Positions 6,589-22,165 of a DNA stretch of 64,000 nucleotides are shown here, piece after piece. Every line of letters begins with the position of its first letter. Position 1 is the first letter of the stretch. Position numbers and translations under genes: made by a program. The stretch covers positions 24,096 through 88,095 of the IMG/VR virus record IMGVR_UViG_3300037312_001491; one strand, given 5' to 3'. The DNA is from a virus. Lineage: Duplodnaviria > Caudoviricetes. The notes under the pieces were generated by a model that saw nothing but the letters and a program-made list of their open reading frames with translations, made no database searches and had not been told where the DNA came from.

Positions 6589-7059
6589 ATGACCAAGACC
6601 CAGACCACGCGCGTCGCTGACGCGTCCCCCGCCCCGAAGGGCGGCGTGACCATCTTCTCTGCGAAGGACGCGGCCGCGGCCGCGCGTCCGTTCATGCGGC
6701 TCGACGAGCAGGAGACTCTCGTCGTGCTGCACCTCGACGTGCACAACAAGGTGATCGGGGATCCGCGCATCGCGGCCATCGGCACCATGACGAGCGTCGA
6801 GTGTCACCCACGCGACGTGTTCCGTGCCGCCATCGCGACCAACGCGGCCGCTGTCGTCGTGCTCCACAACCACCCGGTCGGCGACCCGACGCCGAGCGAC
6901 GCGGACATCGGCGTCACCCAGCGGCTCCTCGCCGCGGGCATCGCGCTCGGTATTCCGGTCCTCGACCATGTAGTCGTGACGGCCGACAACCACGTGTCGA
7001 TCCGCGAGCAGGGCGGTGGCGGTGTGGCCTACGAGCGCGTGCCGGAGGTGACGCTGTGA
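6589..7059 (+). CDS. radC: RadC-family JAB/MPN domain protein
   Basis: E..VVLHLD..NKVI, HPRDVF, LHNHPVGDPTPSDAD, LDHVVV signature. Confidence 0.9.
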   Translation: MTKTQTTRVADASPAPKGGVTIFSAKDAAAAARPFMRLDEQETLVVLHLDVHNKVIGDPRIAAIGTMTSVECHPRDVFRAAIATNAAAVVVLHNHPVGDPTPSDADIGVTQRLLAAGIALGIPVLDHVVVTADNHVSIREQGGGGVAYERVPEVTL

Positions 7060-9221
7060 AGCCCAACCAGGAAGTTCAGACCGTCGCCACGAGCGCGACA
7101 GCGTCGGCGTCGTTCGGCATCTCGCGCGCGGACGAGGCCCACATCATGGGCATCCTGCGCAGCACCCTCTACTCCGACAAGATCCTCGCGGTCCTGCGCG
7201 AGTACGGCGCGAACGCGTGGGACGCCCACCGCTCCGTCGGCCGCGGCGATGTCCCCATCGAGGTGACGTTGCCGACGTACGACGCGCCCGTCCTGCGCAT
7301 CCGCGACCGCGGCCCCGGCCTGTCGCGCAACGAGGTGTTCACCGTCTACACCCAGTACGGCGCGAGTAGCAAGCGCGACGACGACAACGCGGTCGGCATG
7401 CTCGGTATCGGCTCCAAGTCGGGCTTCTCGTACGCGAGCAGCTTCACGATCACGAGCTGGCACGCCGGCACCAAAGCGATCTACGTCGCGGCGCTCGACC
7501 CGAGCAACCGCGGCCTCATCAACCTCATCCACGAGCAGTGCCTGTGCTGCGAACGCCCCGTCGGCACGAAGAAGGACGAGGCCGACGAGACGGTCTACTG
7601 CGAGTGCACCGCGCGGCTCGCGCCCGAGACCGGCATCGAGATCCAGATCGTCGTGAAGCCGGCCGACGTCGACAAGTTCGAGGAGCGCGCCGAGCGGCTG
7701 TACGTCCACTTCGAGCCGCGTCCGACCATCAACATCCAGCTCCCTCCGCCCCCCGAGGGCGGGCTCACGAACGAGCATGGAACCATCCGTCCAGGTGGCC
7801 ACGGTGACTGGGTTGCGGTGATGGGCTGCGTGCCGTACCGCATCCGCCTGGGCGAGCTGGACCTGTGCGCCGAGCACCAGTGCCTGCACAACCTGTCCGG
7901 CATCATCCGGTTCGGCATCGGCGACGTGCAGATCGCCGCCTCGCGCGAGGACCTCGACTACACCGACGCGACGCGCGCCGCCATCACGGCGAAGTTCACG
8001 GAGCTGGTCGACGCGTTCGTCACGCAGTCGGTCGCCGAGCTGGAGGCGATGAGCCTGTGGGACCGGCGCCTCCGCGCGCAGGTGCTCAGCAACCTTGGTA
8101 TCACCCTGCCGGCCGAGTACGGCGAAATCGCCAAGGGCTGGGTGAAGTTGTTCGAGCCGAGCGACGACGGCGTGCCGTTCCGCATGTGGCACGTCAGCGA
8201 GCAGACCAGCCAGATCCAGGTCGAACCGGACACGCGCATCTACATCGACGACACCGGCAAGCTCCTCAAGGGCTACGCCCGCTCGATGGAGCGGCACTAC
8301 TACGTGGTGCGCGCCAAGACGCGCGGCATGTCGTACGACGACCTCAAGGCCGTCGTCGACGAGCACATCAACGCGTGCCTCGTCACCGGCATCCCCATCC
8401 ATCGGCTCTCCGAGCTGCACTGGGACTCGACCGCCAGCTCGCGTGGCGGCCGCTCGTGGGGTGCCGACAAGAGCAAGCACAAGGCGTCGATGTTCGTCCT
8501 CGACCCCGAGGCGCAGTTCAAGCACCCGTTCTCCAACGCGTGGTCGACGGTGACGCGTGTCCCCGAGGACACCGACGTGTTCGTCATCCTGGAGAACTTC
8601 AAACCCAACGGGGTCGACTCGTTCTTCCTGGAGTACCGCGACGACCGCGTGCTCGCCGAGGCGTTCGGCGTCGAGATGCCGCAGGTCTACGGGTACAAGT
8701 CGACGACGAAGAAGACCGTCCGCCCGTCTGACTGCAAGGGGCTCACGTACGACGCGTGGCGCAAGCAGTTCATCAAGGACCTCGGCACGCCCGAGCGCCT
8801 CGCCGAGATCTCCGAGATGTGGTGGGGGCACGTGCTCCGCTACACGGCCGACAGGTACGACCGCAAGTTTCTGCGCGAGCAGCTCGGCCGCGACCACGCC
8901 GTCGTCCGCCTCGTCTCTCGGTGCGCACACGCCGACAGCATGAAGAACCGGGACGCGCTGCTCGCGCTCGCGACTCGGCTTGGCATCGCGAAGGACACGT
9001 CGGCCGCGCACGCGGCACTCGAAGAGATCCTCAACCGCTACCCGCTGCTCCGGTGCAGCGACTACGGCGTCCGGTCGCTGTGGTTGAACTACACCCGGAA
9101 CCACCGCAACGAGTGGTGCAAGTACGTACGCCTCGTTGACGAAAGCCTAAATCGTACCCAGACTGTCGACACCAAGAAAGGAACCGCCACCGATGCAGCC
9201 GATTCCGTACAGCCTGTCTAA
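7056..9221 (+). CDS. rIIA: rIIA-like protein (GHKL ATPase N-terminus)
   Basis: LYSDKILAVLREYGANAWDAH, IRDRGPGLS, GMLGIGSKSGFSY motifs; followed by an rIIB-like gene; GTG start 7056. Confidence 0.85.
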   Translation: MKPNQEVQTVATSATASASFGISRADEAHIMGILRSTLYSDKILAVLREYGANAWDAHRSVGRGDVPIEVTLPTYDAPVLRIRDRGPGLSRNEVFTVYTQYGASSKRDDDNAVGMLGIGSKSGFSYASSFTITSWHAGTKAIYVAALDPSNRGLINLIHEQCLCCERPVGTKKDEADETVYCECTARLAPETGIEIQIVVKPADVDKFEERAERLYVHFEPRPTINIQLPPPPEGGLTNEHGTIRPGGHGDWVAVMGCVPYRIRLGELDLCAEHQCLHNLSGIIRFGIGDVQIAASREDLDYTDATRAAITAKFTELVDAFVTQSVAELEAMSLWDRRLRAQVLSNLGITLPAEYGEIAKGWVKLFEPSDDGVPFRMWHVSEQTSQIQVEPDTRIYIDDTGKLLKGYARSMERHYYVVRAKTRGMSYDDLKAVVDEHINACLVTGIPIHRLSELHWDSTASSRGGRSWGADKSKHKASMFVLDPEAQFKHPFSNAWSTVTRVPEDTDVFVILENFKPNGVDSFFLEYRDDRVLAEAFGVEMPQVYGYKSTTKKTVRPSDCKGLTYDAWRKQFIKDLGTPERLAEISEMWWGHVLRYTADRYDRKFLREQLGRDHAVVRLVSRCAHADSMKNRDALLALATRLGIAKDTSAAHAALEEILNRYPLLRCSDYGVRSLWLNYTRNHRNEWCKYVRLVDESLNRTQTVDTKKGTATDAADSVQPV

Positions 9222-10491
9222 CGACGTCCTGACCGTCACGGTCGAGGGCTCACCCAAGTTCGTCCGCAAGGGTGCCTCCGAGTTCGAGGCCCTGCGCGCC
9301 GCGCTCATCGCCGAGGACTGGGACACCGCGCACTCCTTGCTCAAGCCGGGAGGGGGCGTCGCGCACTACCTCGCGGCCCACAACACCGTCGCCGGTATCG
9401 CGCAGTTCCAGCTGCGCGACGGCCAGCTCTACTTCAACGACGAGCGGGTCCACCCCAACGTCGCTTCGCGCATCGACCGCATGGCGGCCTCTGGCGAGGA
9501 CCCGACGCCGGTGATCCGCTTCTACGAGCGTCTCCAGCAGAACCCGAGCAAGCGGTCCGTCGACCAGCTGTTCGACTTCCTCCAGCACCTCGGCCTGCCG
9601 TTCGAGGCGGACGGCACGTTCCTCGCGTACAAGGGCGTCAACGACGACCTGTCCGACAAGTACACCGGCCGCATCTTCAACACGCCGGGTGCGGTCATCA
9701 AGATCAACCGCAACCTCGTGTCGGACGACCCGCGCACGCCCTGCCACGAGGGACTCCACGTCGGCGCCCACGCGTACGCGAGCACGTTCGCCTCGACCAC
9801 CATCGCGGTGCGCGTCGACCCCAAGAACGTCGTCTGCGTGCCGTACGACTCTAGCAGCCAGAAGATGCGCGTCTGCGAGTACGAGGTCATCGGCCTCCAC
9901 TCGGGTGAGCTGATGCCGAACAACACGATCCCGGCCGCGGACGTGCCGGCGAAGTCCACCGCAGCGAACCTCGCGCCGTGCGCGAATTGCGGTATCCAGA
10001 CGCACGCGGTGGAGAACTTCTGCCACGGCTGCAAGCAGGTCGTGTGCAACGACTGCGACCAGGACCACGACCGCGCGATGGGCCCGCACGAGCTGAGCGA
10101 CCACCTGACCCTCGACTCGCCGGCGGCCGACAGCCGCAAGGGCGAGATCGACCCGGAGTACGAGAACGTCGCGGAGACGGTCGACGCCGTCACCGTCGCG
10201 AACGAGCCGGCGGTCGAGGCGTTCACCGGCGAGCAGCTCGACCAGGCCGTCACCGAGCACGCGCACGAGGCCGAACAGGCCAAGAAGTTTCGTCAGTTCA
10301 AGAAGTTGACGACGCGCCAGCTCCTGGAGCAGACGCTGACCGACCTCCGCGAGTACGCCCTCAAGCTCAAGATCGTCGGCTCGGGGCACATCAAGGGCGG
10401 CAAGACGGCCCTGGTGCCCCACATCGTCAAGGCACGCAGCCTGGCGAACCGCAAGCGCCTCAAGGTGCGCGGCAAGAAGGCCCGGAAGTAG
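9193..10491 (+). CDS. rIIB: rIIB-like protein with C-terminal extension
   Basis: NPSKRSVDQLFDFL, FLAYKGV, DDP..PCHEGLHVGA..YA, VDPKNVVCVP.D...KMRVCEYEV. Confidence 0.85.
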   Translation: MQPIPYSLSNDVLTVTVEGSPKFVRKGASEFEALRAALIAEDWDTAHSLLKPGGGVAHYLAAHNTVAGIAQFQLRDGQLYFNDERVHPNVASRIDRMAASGEDPTPVIRFYERLQQNPSKRSVDQLFDFLQHLGLPFEADGTFLAYKGVNDDLSDKYTGRIFNTPGAVIKINRNLVSDDPRTPCHEGLHVGAHAYASTFASTTIAVRVDPKNVVCVPYDSSSQKMRVCEYEVIGLHSGELMPNNTIPAADVPAKSTAANLAPCANCGIQTHAVENFCHGCKQVVCNDCDQDHDRAMGPHELSDHLTLDSPAADSRKGEIDPEYENVAETVDAVTVANEPAVEAFTGEQLDQAVTEHAHEAEQAKKFRQFKKLTTRQLLEQTLTDLREYALKLKIVGSGHIKGGKTALVPHIVKARSLANRKRLKVRGKKARK

Positions 10492-11469: not shown

Positions 11470-14214
11470 ATGGCCGACGAGAAGTCCGGGCGCACGAAGC
11501 GAGGCACGTTTGCACCTGGCACCTCCGGCAACCCCAGCGGCAGGGCGAAGCCCCGAACCGACGCCGCGCCGGTTACCAGGCTGGACGGCTGGCAGAACTT
11601 CTTCTCCGGCCATGGTGTCTACGGCCGCGACAAGCGCCAGGGGACGAGCTTCAAGGCCGCCACCCTGACGTTCGACCAGCTCGCCGAGCTGTGGCGCGGC
11701 GACGACCTCGCGGCACGCGCCGTCGAGACGCTGCCGAAAGAGTCTCTCCGCGAGGGTTACGATCTGTCGATCCCCGAGGCGGCGCTGGGTGGCGAGGACG
11801 AGGCCGAGCGCATCGCCGAGATCGTCGACGCCCTGTCGACACTGGGGGCGGACGAGACGATCCGTACCGGCCTCTGCTACGAGCGTGGCCTAGGTGGTGG
11901 CGCCGTCCTCATCGGCGCGAACGACGGCCAGGACGACCTGACCAAGCCGCTGCGCCTCGAATCCATCCGTTCGCTCGACTGGCTGACCCCGCTCGAACCG
12001 CGCGAGATCATGCCGGTGTACGGCTACGCCGACCCGCGCGCCCCGAAGTACGGCCAGCCCGAGATCTACCGCATCACGAGCCGCACCATCCTGCCACCGC
12101 AGGATGGCAAGTACGGCAACCAGGTGATGGACATCCACGAGTCGCGGCTCCTGGTGTTCCCCGGCATCCGCGTCAGCCGCTACCAGTACATGGCCTCCCA
12201 GGGCGGTTGGGGTGACTCGGTGCTCATCCGCATGTGGCGCGTGCTCCGCGACTTCAACCTCGCGTGGGGCTCCGCCGGCGCGCTCGTCACCGAGTTCGCC
12301 TCGGCGACGTACAAGATGAAGGACCTGTGGACGGCGCTGTCGACGAAGGGCGGCGCGCAGGCGTTCGCCGAACGCCTCCAGGCGATGGACCTGGCACGGT
12401 CGACCATCAACGCGACTGTCATCGACGGCGACGACGACTTCAAGCGCGAGCAGACGCCGATCTCCGGCCTGCCCGACCTCATGGACAAGTTCTCGACGCG
12501 CCTCGCGGCGGCCGCGGACATGCCGCTCACGCTCCTGTTCGGCACGAGCCCGGCGGGCCTCAACGCCACCGGCGAGTCTGACATTCGCTTCTTCTACGAC
12601 CGCGTCGCCGCGTTCCAGCGCGACAAGGTGCTGCCGCAGCTCAAGACGCTGATCCGGATTCTGTTCCGCACACTCGGCTCAAAGGTGGAGCCCGAGAAGT
12701 GGGACGTCGAGTTCCGTCCACTGTGGCAGGAGAGCGCCAAGGACAAGGCCGCCGCGATGCTCACGCAGGCGCAGGCCGACCACATCTGGGTCACCGACGG
12801 CATGCTGTCGGCCGAGGAGGTGGCGGACGCACACTGGGGCACCGGCAAGTGGGTCCCCGACCTCCGCGTCGACTTCGAGGCGCGCGAGCGCCAGGAGGCT
12901 GCGGCCGCCGCGCCGGTCACGCAAGCTGACTTCGCGGCGATGGGTCGCGGCCCCAACGGCCAGCCGCTCCAGCCAATGCCGGGCCAGCGCCAACTCCAGC
13001 CGGGCCCCGCGCAGTTCGGTCGCCCGCAGCCGCAGCCTGGCTTCGGACAGCCGGTGCAGCGCCAGCTCCAGCCCGGCCCGGCGATGCCAGGTCAGAAGCC
13101 GGTCCCTGGCCAGCAGTCACCCGGTCAGGCGCCAGGCGCGGCCGCCGCTCAGGGTGCCGCCCCCGGCGCAGCTCCGGGCGCGAAGGCGTCGAAGCTCGGC
13201 GCCAGCGGCTACCGCTACGCACCGGACGTCACCCAGCGTGGCCAGGGGGCCGACGACGACATCGACCGCAAGCCGCGCTCGATGGTGCTGTCGAACGACG
13301 CCGACGACCGTCCGCAGCTCAGCGTGGTGCGCGAGGACGTGATCGAGCATGCGTCCGACGGATGGCACGTCTACTCCGAGACCGAGCCGCGCAAGCATCT
13401 CGGCGGCCCGTACCAGACGAAGGAAGGCGCGATTGAACGACTGCGCCAGGTCGAGGGCCACGCCCGTGACGACAGCTTCAACCCGGACCAGCCACGCGCC
13501 GAGAATGGCGAGTGGGGCGAGGGCGGCGCCGGTGGCGCGCACCCGAGCGCACCGACGTCCGGCGAGCACGCCGCAGCGCAGGGCACCTCGTTCGAGCAGG
13601 CCGTCCACGCGGTCTCAGCCGGCGAGAAGCACGGCATGACCGCCGAGCACTTCAAGGCGCTCGTCGAGAGGAAGAAGGCGGAGTCCGACGCGCACAAGAA
13701 CGCGGTCCAGGCGTTCGCCGCCAAGCTCACGCCGATCGAGACGCAGGTCTCCAATGGCTACGGCGTGTTCGGAGAGGTCGTCAACGGTGCACTCCGCGCC
13801 GGTCGCCCGCCCAGCTCGGCCGACGAGAAGGCCGCGATCGGTGCGCTCGATAGTGCCATCAGGAAGTCGAAGGCGCCGGCCGACATGATCGTGTACCGCG
13901 GCATCCACAGTGACCGGGACCCGATGGCCAAGCTCAAGCCCGGTGTCGTCATCCGCGACAAGGGTTACGTGTCGACGACAGGTTCCCGAGACATTGCGGC
14001 CGAGTTCGCGCACCGGGAACACACCGGCAAGCTCGATCCGTCGTCCACGAGCGTCATCGTGAGGATCAAGGTTCCCAAGGGCCACCCAGCCGCGCCGATT
14101 CCGTCGACGTACCGGTTCGAGCACGAGTACCTCCTGCCTCGCGGCAGCAAGTTCAAGATCACCTCGGTCGCGAAAGAGGGCGGGGACACCGTCGTCGAAG
14201 CGGAGGCCCTGTGA
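11470..14214 (+). CDS. portal protein (DUF1073-type) fused to C-terminal ADP-ribosyltransferase
   Basis: aa ~30-470 portal-like (LWRGDDLAARAVETLP, IHESRLL, WGDSVL, GTSPAGLNATGESDIRFFYD, EFRPLWQ); Q/P linker; ART motifs VYRG (13894), STT (13972), EHE (14119). Confidence 0.85.
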   Translation: MADEKSGRTKRGTFAPGTSGNPSGRAKPRTDAAPVTRLDGWQNFFSGHGVYGRDKRQGTSFKAATLTFDQLAELWRGDDLAARAVETLPKESLREGYDLSIPEAALGGEDEAERIAEIVDALSTLGADETIRTGLCYERGLGGGAVLIGANDGQDDLTKPLRLESIRSLDWLTPLEPREIMPVYGYADPRAPKYGQPEIYRITSRTILPPQDGKYGNQVMDIHESRLLVFPGIRVSRYQYMASQGGWGDSVLIRMWRVLRDFNLAWGSAGALVTEFASATYKMKDLWTALSTKGGAQAFAERLQAMDLARSTINATVIDGDDDFKREQTPISGLPDLMDKFSTRLAAAADMPLTLLFGTSPAGLNATGESDIRFFYDRVAAFQRDKVLPQLKTLIRILFRTLGSKVEPEKWDVEFRPLWQESAKDKAAAMLTQAQADHIWVTDGMLSAEEVADAHWGTGKWVPDLRVDFEARERQEAAAAAPVTQADFAAMGRGPNGQPLQPMPGQRQLQPGPAQFGRPQPQPGFGQPVQRQLQPGPAMPGQKPVPGQQSPGQAPGAAAAQGAAPGAAPGAKASKLGASGYRYAPDVTQRGQGADDDIDRKPRSMVLSNDADDRPQLSVVREDVIEHASDGWHVYSETEPRKHLGGPYQTKEGAIERLRQVEGHARDDSFNPDQPRAENGEWGEGGAGGAHPSAPTSGEHAAAQGTSFEQAVHAVSAGEKHGMTAEHFKALVERKKAESDAHKNAVQAFAAKLTPIETQVSNGYGVFGEVVNGALRAGRPPSSADEKAAIGALDSAIRKSKAPADMIVYRGIHSDRDPMAKLKPGVVIRDKGYVSTTGSRDIAAEFAHREHTGKLDPSSTSVIVRIKVPKGHPAAPIPSTYRFEHEYLLPRGSKFKITSVAKEGGDTVVEAEAL

Positions 14215-16205
14215 GCAATAAGCGTTTCACCTGGACCGACGGCGACTTCGAGGTCGTCGAGTCGGGCGACCGCACCGACGACTTCAACCCCGACGAGCCT
14301 CGCGCGGCGGATGGGAAATGGGGCGAGGGCGGCGCCGGCGCCGCACAGAAGACTCCGGCCGCCGGCAAGGCCGGTCCGAAGGGTGAGGCTAAGGAGGCCG
14401 CGGAGTCCAAGGACAAGCCGAAGGCCGAAGACAAGCCGGCCGCGGAGGTGAAGGCGACCACCGCGCACACCGGCGCGTCGTTCGAGGACTGGCACAAGGT
14501 CAACCCGAACGGCAACGGTGAGGTGTTCTCGGACGCGCGCAAGGCGCTCGCGACCGAGACCGTCGGCCAGAACGCGTGGTTCAACTTCTCGAAGGCGAAC
14601 GAGGGCAAGCCGGTCAGCCAGCGCAGCTTCGCCGATCAGAAGGCGTTCCTGCTCGACCCCAAGCTGTACCAGCCGCTCATCGACCGTGCGACGAAGCACG
14701 ACGCCGCGGACGACGAGGACACGGACCTCTACTTCACGTGCCCGTGCCACCGCCGAGCGGCGGCCGCCCGCGCTGACTACGATGAGAGCGAGCCGCGCGA
14801 CGAGAACGGCAAGTGGAGTGGTGGCGGTGGCGGCAGCGCGGCCGCCCCCCACGCACACGGGGGCGAGCACGGCGCACCGCACGGCGGCGCCAAGGAGCTG
14901 GCTGAGAAGGCGAACGCCGGCGGCGGCTTCACCTACGACCCGCACCACGGCAAGTACCCGACGGAAGGCTACGCGGTCTCGATCCACCCGGGCCACGAAG
15001 AGGTCATCCGCTCGAAGGAGCTTTCGCCGGAGGCCGTGAAGGGTTACCTTGACCGGCACGGAGACTACATCCAGAAGCACCCCGGTGCTCACGTCGGCGG
15101 TTGGTATGACGCCGAGGCGGGCAAATGGTACCTGGACGTCAGCCACATCACGCACGACCCACACGAGGCGGAATCCCTCGCGAAGCAGCACAACCAGGAA
15201 GCGTACTACGACCTCGGCAAGCACGAGACCGTCTACGTCAAGTCTGGAAAGGAACGACGACTCGATGAGCGACAAGCCCAAGACACCGCCCGCCGGCGCA
15301 CGAAAGATCTTCTTCGACCCCGCCAAGATGTCCCCCGAGGAGATCGCGGAGGCGATGAAGAAGCACGAGGAGCAGGAGCACGCGCGCCGGGGAATCCCCC
15401 GGAAGCCCGAGTAGACTACTCCCCCGACGAGCCGCGCGCGGCCGATGGGAAGTGGGGCGATGGCGGTGGCGGTGGCCGCGCGGCCGCGTCGTCGCACGTC
15501 GAGCACGCCAAGACCTCGTCGGTCCGCTCGCGCGAGCACGCCGGGAAGGCCGAGACGGAGGCCGACCGCGCGAAGGCGTCGAAGGGCAAGGCGCAGGCCA
15601 AGCACGTCGAGGCGGCGCACGACCACGCCCGCGAGGCCGAGCGTCACGCCCGCGAGGCGAGCGCCGCGGCTGACCGCGCGAAGGAGGCCGGCGGCGAGGA
15701 CTCGCCGTCCGCCAAGGAGGCGTCCAAGCACGCCGTCGAGGCGACCTCCAACGCGAAGGCAGCCCGCACGCAGGCGTCCGGTGCACAGAAGGCCGCGTCG
15801 TCTGGCGGGCAGGCCGGTGCCGCGCGCGCCGCCGCCGACAAGGCGACGAAGGTGGCGGAGAATCTCCACGCCGCCGCGGTTGAGCACCCGACGAAGGCCG
15901 GGCCGACCGCCGAGGAGGCGGACAAACACGCCAAGGCCGCACGCGACCACGCCCGCGCAGCCGCCGGCGCAAAGACGCCCGAGGACGCCGCACAGCACAC
16001 GGCGAAAGCACACGAGCACGCCGCCGCGGCGGAAGAGGCGGCCGCCAAGCTGACCCGCGAGGCCGCGAAGCACGCGCAGCATGAAGGCCACGGCAAGCAC
16101 GCCGAACACGGCGGCCATGGCAAGCACGAGCGCGCCGAGCACAACCACAAGCACGTCGCCGAGAGTTGGCAGGCCCTGCTCAAGATGCTCATGGGTGCCG
16201 GATGA
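14211..16205 (+). CDS. multi-module head-associated protein with three tag repeats
   Basis: 664 aa; three R-x-D..PR...GKW repeats separate distinct modules; Ala/His-rich C-terminus. Confidence 0.7.
   Translation: MSNKRFTWTDGDFEVVESGDRTDDFNPDEPRAADGKWGEGGAGAAQKTPAAGKAGPKGEAKEAAESKDKPKAEDKPAAEVKATTAHTGASFEDWHKVNPNGNGEVFSDARKALATETVGQNAWFNFSKANEGKPVSQRSFADQKAFLLDPKLYQPLIDRATKHDAADDEDTDLYFTCPCHRRAAAARADYDESEPRDENGKWSGGGGGSAAAPHAHGGEHGAPHGGAKELAEKANAGGGFTYDPHHGKYPTEGYAVSIHPGHEEVIRSKELSPEAVKGYLDRHGDYIQKHPGAHVGGWYDAEAGKWYLDVSHITHDPHEAESLAKQHNQEAYYDLGKHETVYVKSGKERRLDERQAQDTARRRTKDLLRPRQDVPRGDRGGDEEARGAGARAPGNPPEARVDYSPDEPRAADGKWGDGGGGGRAAASSHVEHAKTSSVRSREHAGKAETEADRAKASKGKAQAKHVEAAHDHAREAERHAREASAAADRAKEAGGEDSPSAKEASKHAVEATSNAKAARTQASGAQKAASSGGQAGAARAAADKATKVAENLHAAAVEHPTKAGPTAEEADKHAKAARDHARAAAGAKTPEDAAQHTAKAHEHAAAAEEAAAKLTREAAKHAQHEGHGKHAEHGGHGKHERAEHNHKHVAESWQALLKMLMGAG
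15265..15414 (+). CDS. nested out-of-frame small ORF (49 aa)
   Basis: MSDKPKTPPAGARKIFFDPAKMSPEEIAEAM...; G/C-ending codons in this frame while the host frame has many A/T-ending codons; AGGAA upstream. Confidence 0.55.
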   Translation: MSDKPKTPPAGARKIFFDPAKMSPEEIAEAMKKHEEQEHARRGIPRKPE

Positions 16206-17569
16206 GCTGCTGTCGCCTCGACCGCGGGGCGCTGCCGAAGCCGAAGCGGCCGCGTACCCTGCCCATCCAGGTCCCGCCGACAGCGATCGAGGCCCAGTAC
16301 GCCAAGGCGCTCGTCCGGTACGTCATCGGCGCGATGCGCTGGGCGTACGCGCCGCTGCTGCGCGAGGCCCCCAAGCTCGTCAAGGCGCGCGCGGCCGCGC
16401 GGCACGACTCCGCCGACGAGTGCACTACGACGATGTTCGCCGGGCTACCGATCGTAATCGAGAACCCGGCCGGCTCGTTCCGGTACTGGGTCGACACGAC
16501 CGGGCGCGCCGGCACGACGGTGATGCGGTACCCGTACGGCTACGTCCGCGGCGTGCGTGGCGCCGACGGTGACGAGGTCGACGTGTTTATCGGTCCAGAC
16601 GAAGCGGCGCAGTGGGTGTACATCGTGCACCAGCGGTTCGCGCCGAAGTTCGTCGACTTCGACGAGGACAAGGTGATGCTCGGGTTCCCGAGCGCCGACG
16701 CCGCGCGCGCGGCGTACCTCGCGCACTACGACGACCCCCGCTACTTCGGGGGGATGACCCAGGTCCAGCGCGAGGCGTTCGAGCGCGCGGTCGCGGCCGC
16801 TCGCGGCGGCAAGATCACCCACGTCGACTCGCTGACGGCCGTCGCTCGCTACGACTCCCCGGAGTCGCGTCGGGTGCAGAAGCTCATCCGCGAGGCCGCA
16901 CGCCGGCTCCGGCTCAAGCTCAACAAGCGCGAGATCGCGCGGCTGGCGAAAAAGTTCGCCGAGCAGACGAGCACGTACCAGCGCGTGCAGCTCCACCGCC
17001 AGGTCCACGCGGCCCTGGGCATCGCGGCGCCGCTCGCCGCCGAGTACACGCAGAGTCGCATCGCCGACTTCGTTCGCGAGAACGTCGCGCTCATCTCGCG
17101 GATTCCACAGGAGCACCACGGCGAAATCGAGACGATGGTCCACCGTGCGGTCACCAGCGGCCAGCTCACCGACGATCTCGCCGACGACCTGGAGGACGAG
17201 TTCGCGCTCTCCGAACGCCACGCGCGTTTCATCGCTCGTGATCAGATCGGCAAGCTCCAGGCCGACCTCAACCACGCGCGCCAGCGTGACCTCGGCGTCA
17301 AAAAGTTTGTGTGGCGGACGATGCGCGACGAGCGCGTCCGCGGCACGCCCGGCGGCCTGTACCCCAACGCGCAGCCCAGCCACTTCGACCTCGATGGCCA
17401 GGAGTTCTCCTACGACGACCCTCCGCAGCCACCTGGTGCCCAGGGGCCGCTTCTACCCGGGGATGACTACAACTGCCGCTGCTACGCCGAACCAGTTTTT
17501 GATGAGCTGGTGGAGGACCTGCGCGTGGCCGAAGTCGATCCGGACGAAGCGTCGATGGAAGCGGAATAG
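16202..17569 (+). CDS. MuF/SPP1 gp7-like minor head protein with inserted inorganic-pyrophosphatase-like domain
   Basis: ARFIARDQIGKL, KKFVWRTMRDERVR, H..LDG..F, PGDDYNCRC (MuF); insert IENPAGS.R..YPYGY..GADGDEVDVFIG..DEDKVMLGF at ~16400-16855. Confidence 0.85.
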   Translation: MSCCRLDRGALPKPKRPRTLPIQVPPTAIEAQYAKALVRYVIGAMRWAYAPLLREAPKLVKARAAARHDSADECTTTMFAGLPIVIENPAGSFRYWVDTTGRAGTTVMRYPYGYVRGVRGADGDEVDVFIGPDEAAQWVYIVHQRFAPKFVDFDEDKVMLGFPSADAARAAYLAHYDDPRYFGGMTQVQREAFERAVAAARGGKITHVDSLTAVARYDSPESRRVQKLIREAARRLRLKLNKREIARLAKKFAEQTSTYQRVQLHRQVHAALGIAAPLAAEYTQSRIADFVRENVALISRIPQEHHGEIETMVHRAVTSGQLTDDLADDLEDEFALSERHARFIARDQIGKLQADLNHARQRDLGVKKFVWRTMRDERVRGTPGGLYPNAQPSHFDLDGQEFSYDDPPQPPGAQGPLLPGDDYNCRCYAEPVFDELVEDLRVAEVDPDEASMEAE

Positions 17570-18392: not shown

Positions 18393-20120
18393 ATGGCGAC
18401 CCATCGCCGGCTCGACCTCGGAGAACTGCGGCCCATGACCCGCCGCGGGGACGGGACCGTCCGCGTCCAGGCGCACCTCACGCGCTGTGGCGTGTTTCCA
18501 TACCTCCAGCCCGACGGCACCATTCGCCGCGAGCTGCGCCCCCGCGACGAGGTGATGGATCCGGAGTCCCTGGCGTCGTTCGCCGGCGTGCCTGTCACCA
18601 ACGACCACCCGCCCGAGATGGTCGACTCGAAGAACGCCCGCAAGTACGCGGTCGGCTCGCTCCAGGGGACGCCGATTCCCGACGACGACCACGTCCGCGG
18701 CGATCTCTCCGTCTACGACGGCGAGACCATCGGCCAGATGGACAGCGGCTCGCGGCGCCAGGTTAGCCTGGGCTACACCTGTGACCTCGAAGAGACGCCA
18801 GGCGTCGATCCGGTCTACGGCCCCTACGATGCCATCCAGCGGAACATCCGCGGCAACCACGTCGCCCTGGTGACGACGGCCCGCGCCGGTGGCACGGCAC
18901 GCGTCCGCCTCGACGCTGCGGAGCAGCTTGATGGCACGGTTCTTGCGCTCTGCACGAACTGTGCCAAGATGCATTTCATGGCGACCAACGCCGCGCACGC
19001 CGACGCAAGCGAGACCGACAAGCCGCAGGGTGGCAAGCCCGAGGCTGGTGACCCGGACACGGGTGACGAGGCTTCGCGCAACGCCGCCGGCGCGAACGAC
19101 GCGCAGGCCGGCGATAAGGCCAAGAAGCCGCCGGCGACCGCCGACGACACCGACACGAAGGTCGAGCGCGACAGCGCCGACGACGACGAGGAAGACGACA
19201 CCCCCACCGATGGCGGCGATGACGACGACACCTCGGACGACGACGACGATGAAGGCGACGACTCGGACGACGACACCGACGCCGGTGACGACGACGAGGA
19301 AGACCGCGACGATGACGGCGAGCAGCTGTCGGACGAGGACCGCCACAAGATGGCGACCAGCTCGTTCGCGGTGCCAGACCGAGAAGGTCTGCCCATCCAC
19401 GACCCCGATCACACGCGGGCCGCGATGGCGCGCTTCAACCAGTACAAGTTCAAGTCGCCCGAAGAGAAGCACGCAGCGTTCAACCGGATCACCCGGCGCG
19501 CGTCGCACTTCGGCATCGACAGCAAGGGTTTCGAGGAGGCGCATCGCGACCGCCTCGACCGCGAGGACGACGAGATGAAGAAGATCGCCCAGCTCCAGAC
19601 TAAGCTCGACGCGGCCGAGAAGAAGCTCGCAACGGCCGAAGGCCAGGTCGCCAGCCTCACCAAGGACCTCGAAGCCGCGAAGAAGACGACCGAGTCGGCC
19701 CGCAAGGACGCCGCCGATCGCTTCGACGCGATGGTCGCCGAGCGCGTCGCGCTCCTGACCGAGGCCGCCGCGACTGGCGCGAAGGTCGACGCGAAGATGT
19801 CGTCGATCGAGATCAAGCGCACCGTCGTCAAGCACGTCGACGGCGAGGACATCCCGGCCGAGAAGCCGGAGCCGTACGTCGACGCGTACTACGAGGGCGC
19901 TCTCAAGCGCGCTCGCAGGGACGCCGAGGACACGAAGAAGGGCGCAGACGCCCTCGCCGCCGCGCGCGCCACCGCCGCGGGTGCGACGCAGCCGGTCCCG
20001 CAGCCGGTCCCGCACAACGACGCCGACGACACCGATGAGCAGGCGGCCTACGCCCGCGCGAACGCCCGCAACGCCGAGGCGTGGACCCACTCGTGGGGCC
20101 GCACTCAGGAGAACAAGTAA
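18393..20120 (+). CDS. DUF2213 prohead protease/scaffold with acidic linker and DUF6582-like insert
   Basis: LTRCGVFPY, RPRDEV..PESLASF.G.PVTNDHP, QVSLGYTCDL, IQRNIRGNHVALV..ARAG; insert FAVP.R..LPIHD..H.RAAMARFNQ; coiled-coil scaffold tail. Confidence 0.85.
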   Translation: MATHRRLDLGELRPMTRRGDGTVRVQAHLTRCGVFPYLQPDGTIRRELRPRDEVMDPESLASFAGVPVTNDHPPEMVDSKNARKYAVGSLQGTPIPDDDHVRGDLSVYDGETIGQMDSGSRRQVSLGYTCDLEETPGVDPVYGPYDAIQRNIRGNHVALVTTARAGGTARVRLDAAEQLDGTVLALCTNCAKMHFMATNAAHADASETDKPQGGKPEAGDPDTGDEASRNAAGANDAQAGDKAKKPPATADDTDTKVERDSADDDEEDDTPTDGGDDDDTSDDDDDEGDDSDDDTDAGDDDEEDRDDDGEQLSDEDRHKMATSSFAVPDREGLPIHDPDHTRAAMARFNQYKFKSPEEKHAAFNRITRRASHFGIDSKGFEEAHRDRLDREDDEMKKIAQLQTKLDAAEKKLATAEGQVASLTKDLEAAKKTTESARKDAADRFDAMVAERVALLTEAAATGAKVDAKMSSIEIKRTVVKHVDGEDIPAEKPEPYVDAYYEGALKRARRDAEDTKKGADALAAARATAAGATQPVPQPVPHNDADDTDEQAAYARANARNAEAWTHSWGRTQENK

Positions 20121-21088: not shown

Positions 21089-22165
21089 ATGTCCTTCAAC
21101 GTCACCGCCCGTTTCTCCCAGGAGCGTCTCGACAAGATGCTCGCCCAGTCGCGTGGGTATGACCCCCGCGCGCCGCGTGCTGCCCGCATCGACAGCCTGA
21201 GTGACAACCAGCGCCACCTGCTCGAAGGCATCTTCCACCGTGACGCCTCGGAGAGCATCTGGTTCGCGCGCCAGCTGGAGTACATCCGCCCCGGCCTGCT
21301 CGACGTCCTCTACCCGGCGCTCAACGGCCGGTCGCTCGTGCCGATCGAGTCGTCGATGGGTCCGGGTGCGTCGATGTGGACCTACCGCTCGTTCGACAAG
21401 GTCGGTAGCGCCGCCCTCGTCGACGACTACGCGATGGACCCGCCGCGCGCCGACGTGAAGGGCCGCGAGGACACGCAGGTCATCAAGCCGTACGGCGTCA
21501 TGTACGGCTACAACTTCCAGGAGCTTCGCGCCGGCATGATGGCGCAGCTGCCCCTGGACACGCGCAAGGCGATGGCCGCGCGCTACGCCATGGAGAGGAA
21601 GATCGACGAGATCATCTTCTACGGCGACACGGCCGGCGGCCTCAAGGGCCTCCTGAACCAGGCGAACACGACCACGTTCAACGTGGCGAACGGCGCCAAG
21701 GGCACCACGTTCTGGAAGGACAAGAGCCCGGACGAGATCGTGCGTGACATGCACGACTTCGTGAACAACGTCGTGTCGACGAGCCTGGGCGTGTACCAGC
21801 CGACGACCCTGGTGCTGCCGCTCCGCGCGCATCAGATCGCGTCGACGACCCGCATGGGCGACGGCTCGAACGAGACGGTCCTCTCGTTCTTCCAGAAGAC
21901 GAACCCGTACATCCAGGAGGTCATCGCCTCCTACCGCCTCAACTACTCGCAGCGCGCGAACTGGGGTGGCTCGTCGGGTCGCATGATGTGCTACGAGAAG
22001 TCGCCGGACCGGCTGGTCATGATCCTGCCGGTCGAGTTCGAGCAGCTCCCCCCGCAGCAGGAAGGCTACGAGTACAAGACGCTCTGCCACATGCGCACGG
22101 GCGGCGTCGTCTCGCTGCACCCGCAGGCGATCTCGTACGGCGACGGCATCACCAACAGCGACTAA
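21089..22165 (+). CDS. major capsid protein (DUF2184-like HK97 fold)
   Basis: FARQLEYI, YGYNFQELRA, ERKIDEIIFYGD...KGLLN, PVEFEQLPPQ, RTGGV...P..I.Y.DGI. Confidence 0.85.
   Translation: MSFNVTARFSQERLDKMLAQSRGYDPRAPRAARIDSLSDNQRHLLEGIFHRDASESIWFARQLEYIRPGLLDVLYPALNGRSLVPIESSMGPGASMWTYRSFDKVGSAALVDDYAMDPPRADVKGREDTQVIKPYGVMYGYNFQELRAGMMAQLPLDTRKAMAARYAMERKIDEIIFYGDTAGGLKGLLNQANTTTFNVANGAKGTTFWKDKSPDEIVRDMHDFVNNVVSTSLGVYQPTTLVLPLRAHQIASTTRMGDGSNETVLSFFQKTNPYIQEVIASYRLNYSQRANWGGSSGRMMCYEKSPDRLVMILPVEFEQLPPQQEGYEYKTLCHMRTGGVVSLHPQAISYGDGITNSD

Follow-up and report, generated by a model that had tools for sequence, protein, structure and literature searches.

How phages choose the proteins that they pack and inject is known only for a few model phages. 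In phage T4, the internal proteins IPI–III and Alt carry an N-terminal capsid-targeting sequence that is removed by the head protease gp21, and in the giant phages SPN3US and phiKZ the prohead protease processes the propeptides of ejection proteins at A-x-E sites (PMC7411985). In MuF polymorphic toxins, a MuF head morphogenesis protein carries variable toxin-like domains (Jamet et al. 2017, PMC5576092), and for the polyvalent proteins of phages and conjugative elements, Iyer et al. 2017 propose processing by embedded zincin-like metallopeptidases (PMC5512222). Here we describe a peptide repeat in a 64,000-nt stretch of DNA from a tailed phage (Caudoviricetes; IMG/VR record IMGVR_UViG_3300037312_001491), which we refer to as the window and which corresponds to bases 24096–88095 of a record of 88,095 bases that is rated complete. 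Four copies of this repeat, which we call the tag, head the cargo modules of a portal protein and of the gene next to it. The same tag heads variable modules in a large set of other proteins, and the residue that precedes it tracks the family of the phage's head protease.

All four tag copies are in frame in two adjacent open reading frames (ORFs) on the + strand, at 13465–13515 (copy 1, R-D-D-S-F-N-P-D-Q-P-R-A-E-N-G-E-W), 14271–14321 (copy 2), 14769–14816 (copy 3) and 15408–15455 (copy 4), as an earlier note on this DNA had described, and at the DNA level they form a single 59-nt direct-repeat family with 63–85% identity. A profile of the motif run against all six frames of the whole 88,095-base record returned exactly these four sites, with E values from 1.4e-17 to 2.7e-14, and a loose regular expression added one unrelated match per strand. 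Copy 1 lies in a 914-aa fusion protein (11470–14214, + strand) that consists of a portal domain (Phage_portal_3, aa 70–438; Pfam PF06381, 1.4e-83; portal in PHROG), a Gln/Pro linker, a small domain, the tag with its Gly-rich linker, and an ADP-ribosyltransferase (ART; aa 749–902; PF03496, 9.3e-17). The other three copies belong to the following gene, here called gene X (14211–16205, + strand, 664 aa), whose GTG start overlaps the portal stop and which encodes a 20-aa leader followed by three tag-headed modules. The earlier note had also read a Gly-rich stretch and a different module after every copy, and we found this to be the case; the ART is the only one of the modules with a Pfam match, and no Pfam family matched gene X.

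The four-module layout proposed for these two genes stands overall, with the qualifications that module 2 is only an internally deleted remnant and that aa 352–399 of gene X are not coding-like in the main frame. Module 2 (14472–14768, + strand), probably a cargo module in decay, keeps roughly the first 15 and the last 85 residues of a domain of about 270 aa, from which some 150 aa in the middle are gone. It shares 64% identity with aa 471–562 of the MuF protein of a related locus, L003 (we refer to loci by L and to proteins by P numbers), and the full-length domain is present at aa 290–562 of the gene X homologue P0003, the MuF protein of a syntenic relative, in which two tag copies head an ART and the full-length module 2. 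Module 3 (14892–15266, + strand) is related to ‘internal virion protein’ genes of the cyanopodoviruses P60 and S-CBP42 and to gp68 of Rhodococcus phage E3. Its homologue in P0002, a gene X homologue of 1091 aa, is also headed by a tag, in a protein whose five copies head a ParB-like domain, a Zeta toxin and other modules as well. Module 4 (15456–16205, + strand) is an Ala/His/Lys-rich helical tail that by eye resembles a separate 258-aa gene between the portal and MuF genes of L003; BLASTP gave no match for it at 1e-3 in the L003 comparison. The ESM Atlas yielded no function for modules 2 and 3.

This arrangement resembles the described systems in part. Polyvalent proteins (PMC5512222) share with the window their many effector domains, their context of or fusion with MuF and portal genes, and domain types such as ART, InPase, Zeta and ParB-like, and they are thought to be packaged and injected. 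At least two unrelated domains per polypeptide are likewise found in the window, as portal plus ART, as InPase plus MuF and as the three modules of gene X, which have separate homologues, and the gene context is again one of portal and MuF. In contrast to the zincin-like metallopeptidases embedded in polyvalent proteins, PF18818 (zincin-like MPTase-PolyVal) had no match in the 88-kb genome, and no junction motif turned up in the searched passages of the polyvalent-protein paper. As for MuF toxins, many carriers of the tag have it between MuF and a C-terminal ART (e.g., L110). The MuF protein of the window (16166–17569, + strand; PF04233, 9.7e-17) differs from the toxins of Jamet et al., in that an InPase domain (PF18823, 1.6e-32) is inserted in its N-terminal part and no toxin follows: the MuF domain ends 27 aa before the stop, where a MuF toxin would continue into a C-terminal domain of at least 100 aa, and the cargo is on the portal and in a separate gene instead. 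The InPase insert is bracketed by A-R-H-D (16397–16408) and A-R-Y-D (16844–16855), without the full tag. The words motif, linker and cleavage are absent from the MuF-toxin paper, a search of which turned up no junction motif (PMC5576092).

The repeat is much broader than was visible from the single genome. A profile built from 13 copies was searched against 1.84 billion representative proteins and matched 2085 of them (clusters) at E ≤ 1e-3; matches at E ≤ 1e-10 numbered 323. Carriers have up to 14 copies per protein and reach lengths of up to 3849 aa. The consensus, drawn from 677 instances in the top 151 proteins, is phi-x-K-[YF]-[SDN]-P-D-Q-P-R-D-[ED]-x-G-[RK]-[WF]-[TGS]-x-G-G-G, in which the filter itself makes R and G invariant, and D, P and W/F reach a conservation of about 90% or more. 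The copies in the window are a variant of this general motif, with E for Q, A for D and R-x-D replacing phi-x-K. When the pattern D-Q-P-R-D-x-x-G-R-W was searched in IMG/VR DNA, the expected upstream aromatic residue was present in 114 of 131 cases among the matches listed. Those listed for GTDB came from Alphaproteobacteria, Actinomycetota, Planctomycetota, Verrucomicrobiota, Chloroflexota, Acidobacteriota, Bacillota, Myxococcota and Spirochaetota.

The placement of the tag within its carriers is that of a header. Neighboring copies are a median of 244 aa apart (5–95%: 134–542) and never closer than 60 aa. Copies are often close to the N-terminus, with a median position of aa 51 for the first one, and none is close to the C-terminus; in 90% of proteins more than 160 aa separate the last copy from the C-terminus, and in viral contigs at least 78 aa follow in 95% of copies among the matches listed. 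In 40 sampled carriers, all Pfam domains fell between tags or beyond the last one. The head domains of carriers are portals of three Pfam families (PF06381, PF04860 and PF06074), MuF proteins and the S78_2 protease, and the cargo domains comprise ART, Zeta toxin, LigT, topoisomerase IB, a pesticin-like lysozyme, M23 and M90-like peptidases, Acb1, histidine phosphatase, HNH and GNAT, to which the lineage of the window adds RelA/SpoT, a PI3/PI4-kinase-like protein and InPase. In L010 and L104 the tag stands in front of MuF itself, and in L085 in front of the protease. Several proteins begin with it: stand-alone head-module proteins start M-F-N-P-D-Q-P-R-D-D-H-G-R-W or M-A-F-N-P-D-Q-P-R-D, and a basic protein of 236 aa from Nocardia phage P3.1 starts M-A-R-R-K-F-N-P-R-Q-P-R-D.

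Since the same modules turn up in different head genes among related phages, modules move between these genes. L003 and the window share 67% identity in their portal cores, 51% in their MuF cores and 65% in their DUF2213 domains. Module 2, which is in gene X in the window, is in the MuF gene in L003 at the 64% identity given above, and module 3, also in gene X in the window, is in the portal gene in L003. The ART is on the portal in both, and the MuF protein of L003 carries an additional one. InPase is on the portal in L250 and in MuF in the window, and in L248 and L249 the portal carries RelA/SpoT instead. Together with the 2085 clusters and the domain-sized spacing of the copies, these relocations support the proposal of the earlier note that the locus is a swappable array of head-associated cargo in which the tag heads variable modules. 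In L248 (1342–6979) and L249 (1357–7857), after the portal–RelA/SpoT fusion comes a small HD_4 gene, which might encode a hydrolase or an antidote, and then the PI3/PI4-kinase-like protein, which has a tag near its N-terminus.

An AlphaFold2 (AF2) model of the tag from 113 aligned instances had a mean predicted local distance difference test score (pLDDT) of 64 and was all coil, with a single bridge from the invariant Arg to the Trp, and in this model the tag behaves as a short linear motif within a flexible linker. Short conserved peptides at the border between a constant delivery part and a variable toxin are familiar from the VENN motif of CdiA and the DPxGL region of Rhs proteins; these differ from the tag in sequence and in the delivery machines that they belong to, and occur once per protein rather than once per module. 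Searches with the motif strings found no relevant description in the literature, with subscription journals outside the search, and the peptide is apparently undescribed. Among 50,697 isolated phages, tblastn with the 21-aa consensus gave one weak match, which probably reflects the sensitivity limit of so short a query rather than absence of the tag. Solved structures yielded one notable match, a weak one (E = 0.33), to chain Af of PDB 9RKU, a 454-aa protein of the phage 7-7-1 baseplate. Residues 82–98 of this chain include S-Q-P-R-D-A-S-G-R-F with a Gly-rich stretch behind it; if the match is real, the tag would also occur in a tail-lumen or baseplate protein.

We observed that the residues directly before the tag vary with the lineage of the phage. 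In the lineage of the window (the window, L003, L248 and L249), R-x-D directly precedes the tag in at least 14 of 16 copies, as judged by eye. Whole records of 120 IMG/VR loci were searched for DUF2213, and 33 of them for the S78 and S78_2 proteases. In the 10 records that bear DUF2213, Asp precedes the aromatic residue, or precedes Ala/Gly plus the aromatic, in all nine distinct internal copies, whereas in the 18 records with S78 or S78_2, 17 of 18 copies have Lys immediately ahead of the aromatic or close to it, and no copy has Asp alone. For the copies that could be classed unambiguously (9 Asp vs 15 Lys), a Fisher test gave p = 7.6e-7, without phylogenetic correction. This charge reversal beside an otherwise fixed tag fits a lineage-specific protease site that abuts a universal element.

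Pfam found no peptidase family in four head proteins of the window, and the candidate for the protease is the DUF2213 protein (18393–20120, + strand). DUF2213 is now named in Pfam after Pa193 gp24, which has been described as a putative scaffold (PMC11456595). Under the hexons of Pa193 there is also a peptide of about 16 residues that is left unassigned (PMC11456595). The AF2 model of its N-terminal 185 aa had a pLDDT of 88 and a predicted template modeling (TM) score of 0.81; in Foldseek, its top matches were all herpesvirus proteases, and T4 gp21 (5jbl) was matched with TM scores of 0.50/0.55 and a probability of 1.00; the herpesvirus matches likewise had probabilities of about 1.0. On the basis of this model, the N-terminal domain (aa 19–172, in the region 18393–18947) has the herpesvirus/T4 gp21 (assemblin) protease fold. 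H72, S125 and H156 are invariant among 88 DUF2213 homologues, with S125 as the predicted catalytic serine. In the same 88 homologues, the sequence A-R-V-R-[ML]-D-[AG]-A, with the D at 100% and the R at 94%, directly follows the domain in a linker that is disordered in the model, and its counterpart in the window is V-R-L-D-A (18903–18917). This layout is the pattern of a protease–scaffold fusion with a self-cleavage site, and the family may be such a fusion and not a scaffold only. In the region 19000–19300 (about aa 200–300), it also has a long Asp/Glu-rich low-complexity insert, which precedes a DUF6582 and coiled-coil part. The pre-tag readings in DUF2213-bearing records are typically R-V-[ML]-D-A-F and echo the protease's own linker. 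A further R-x-D-[SG] sequence is aligned about 30 residues from the major capsid protein (MCP) N-terminus in five relatives (the window, L003, L248, L249 and L250), within a region that is otherwise variable, and is a candidate propeptide cut; in the window, where the MCP gene is at 21089–22165 (+ strand), it reads A-A-R-I-D-S (about 21179–21196).

Because the pre-tag residue tracks the family of the head protease, we consider it rather probable that this protease cuts just upstream of the tag, so that the cargo would keep the tag. What singles out the protease rather than the portal or capsid type is the site in its linker together with the one in the capsid protein. Such a cut would produce the start [A/G][FYW]-x-P-D-Q-P-R-D, which is also how the stand-alone proteins begin. 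In its full form, a model to which we attach about as much belief as doubt, the junction that hangs cargo enzymes on head proteins would have two parts: a short site matched to the head maturation protease of the phage itself (in this case R-x-D, for a serine protease of the DUF2213 type), and a universal tag, about 14 residues long, that reads [FYW]-x-P-D-[QEH]-P-R-x-x-x-G-[KR]-[WF], with a flexible Gly-rich linker and the cargo domain behind it. The polyproteins (portal–ART, gene X and MuF–InPase) would come into the procapsid alongside head assembly proteins or as parts of them, and the protease would cut after the Asp, freeing each module with the tag and the Gly linker at its new N-terminus. 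Without cutting, an enzyme tethered to the portal would be unable to exit with the DNA.

As for what the tag itself does, it would most likely bind a conserved partner inside the head or lead the exit with the DNA; it might keep cargo attached to a conserved inner surface or to DNA, guide it out by way of portal and tail, or work inside the host. To a role in retention or exit we give somewhat less than even odds. That a single tag of about 14 residues, found with hosts of many phyla and independent of portal, protease and capsid type, serves as a common address label for head retention or exit is an idea that we hold a little more loosely still.

Several points weigh against the junction proposed here. 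The protease is inherited along with the portal and capsid types, so that the covariation could reflect lineage or another head partner, and the Fisher test ignores phylogeny. A third class of copies, with Glu before the tag, is tied to no protease; PF03420 (the T4 gp21 family) was silent everywhere, including in the controls, and is hence uninformative. R-x-D is a short motif that, counted over the head proteins as a whole, exceeds expectation only modestly, and the cleavage itself is read from sequence patterns. Among candidates for the partner of the tag, MuF was missing in 3 of 11 complete carrier genomes: with PF04233 in 8 of the 11 records and PF06152 in none of the rest, it is not obligatory at the sensitivity of Pfam. 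A Trypsin_2 protease as a common partner was likewise rejected, with a match in only 2 of 30 long tag-bearing records. The phage's own genome has a Trypsin_2 gene in its early region, outside the window (record positions 13031–13396, - strand; 29 bits, above the cut-off), and in L001 a similar gene adjoins MuF.

The earlier note had likened the tag to the T4 capsid-targeting sequence, and the best-surviving alternative, which we consider unlikely, takes this likeness literally: the tag would bind the scaffold or core and be needed mainly in assembly. Both are short N-terminal peptides on head cargo, with ART among the cargo and a head protease of the same fold, and T4 internal proteins and Alt do use an N-terminal targeting peptide (PMC7411985). 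Proteins without a structural domain (gene X, P0002) start with a short leader and the tag, and stand-alone head-module proteins begin with it. Such an N-terminal position is nevertheless found in only some tag proteins, and most copies are internal. The T4 peptide is upstream of the cut, is discarded, is lineage-specific and occurs once per protein, whereas the tag is seemingly downstream of the cut, is repeated along polyproteins and has a single consensus across phages that differ in scaffold and protease; as the residue linked to the protease is found upstream of it, the tag is probably kept. The analogy also fits only in part because the tag heads head-building domains (MuF, S78_2) and follows portals, which are incorporated by their own structure and need no targeting. 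The giant phages SPN3US and phiKZ are like the proposed junction in that mature ejection proteins are released at a short site with an acidic P1 residue, and differ in that their precursors are stripped of long N-terminal propeptides and that descriptions of them include no universal tag.

Less likely again is that the tag is a recognition element or exosite for assemblin-fold head proteases, with the cut within or after it. The S78, S78_2, T4 gp21 and DUF2213 proteases share one fold, and the invariant Arg and the Arg/Lys position could be cleavage positions. Still, 14 conserved residues far exceed the known prohead protease sites, which are x-x-E in T4 and SPN3US; the candidate MCP and protease-linker sites of the lineage are without a tag; and stand-alone proteins that start exactly at the tag have nothing upstream to be released.

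A role in the infected cell is improbable in our view: there, the tag might anchor cargo to some universal host structure, or its exposed aromatic N-terminus and flexible linker might govern, by way of the bacterial N-end rule (the ClpS/ClpAP pathway), how long toxic cargo persists. Such a role would account for the conservation of the tag across hosts of many phyla, and in many cases the new N-terminus that is predicted is Phe, Tyr or Trp, with a long unstructured stretch behind it. However, many DUF2213-type copies would begin with Ala or Gly before the aromatic, acidic residues are close behind the N-terminus, and an N-degron leaves the conserved P-D-Q-P-R-D-x-x-G-R-W unexplained. Least probable of all is that the coding stretch is mainly a DNA-level handle for cassette recombination, a use that the earlier note had raised beside capsid targeting, and that the peptide has no function of its own: modules have indeed been relocated among portal, gene X and MuF in related phages and the four copies do share their 59 nt, but identical stretches are too short for homologous exchange, synonymous positions differ among the copies (CCA, CCT and CCG for the invariant Pro; GGC and GGG for the invariant Gly), and it is the peptide rather than the DNA that is conserved across genomes of many phyla and G+C contents.

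The surrounding genes show that this is a contractile-tailed phage with Pbunavirus-like structural genes, as judged from the gene content of its head–tail module. The gene order is portal, X, MuF, protease, cement, MCP, sheath and tube, and the structural genes on the + strand further include an E217-type cement protein, a neck terminator, the sheath (DUF3383), a tube protein, a tail chaperone, and Dit-like and hub-like proteins. The nearest portal among isolated phages has 37% identity, and G+C content is 64–71%. Upstream of the portal (6801–10491), two genes would correspond to a HATPase_c_3 protein and an rIIB-like protein, by synteny with L003.

The part of gene X that is not coding-like, aa 352–399 between module 3 and copy 4, coincides with a nested ORF of 49 codons in the +1 frame (15265–15414, + strand), and it is this frame that the periodicity of G+C at third codon positions (GC3) follows there. 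In the main frame, the spacer that holds it has R-L-D and R-V-D at its sides. The nested ORF is kept after module 3 in three divergent loci (window, 15265–15414; L001, 2035–2226; L003, 7927–8154), with the pattern M-S-x-K, then [IVL]-[FV]-F-D-P-x(3-4)-[ST]-P-x-E and M-K. In all three, GC3 periodicity moves to the nested frame, the main frame stays open and encodes Arg/Gly-rich filler, and a purine-rich stretch lies 5–11 nt upstream of the nested ATG. No stand-alone homologues of 26–133 aa were found for the nested peptide. Two readings of the nested ORF are at hand: a gene overprinted on X that moves together with module 3, or the product of a +1 frameshift.

A mark that heads cargo would let injected effectors be listed from metagenomes, among them anti-defense enzymes such as Acb1, as well as ARTs, alarmone synthetases and nucleases, and the tag could be a portable handle for loading proteins into phage heads. 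If the tag is indeed an address label, a protease site and a tag placed in front of any protein could load it and deliver it via such phages, and injected effectors could be cataloged straight from sequence. The link between the pre-tag residue and the protease offers a first guess at the specificity of the uncharacterized DUF2213 head proteases, and it supports reading Pa193 gp24-like proteins as protease–scaffold fusions, beyond scaffolds alone.

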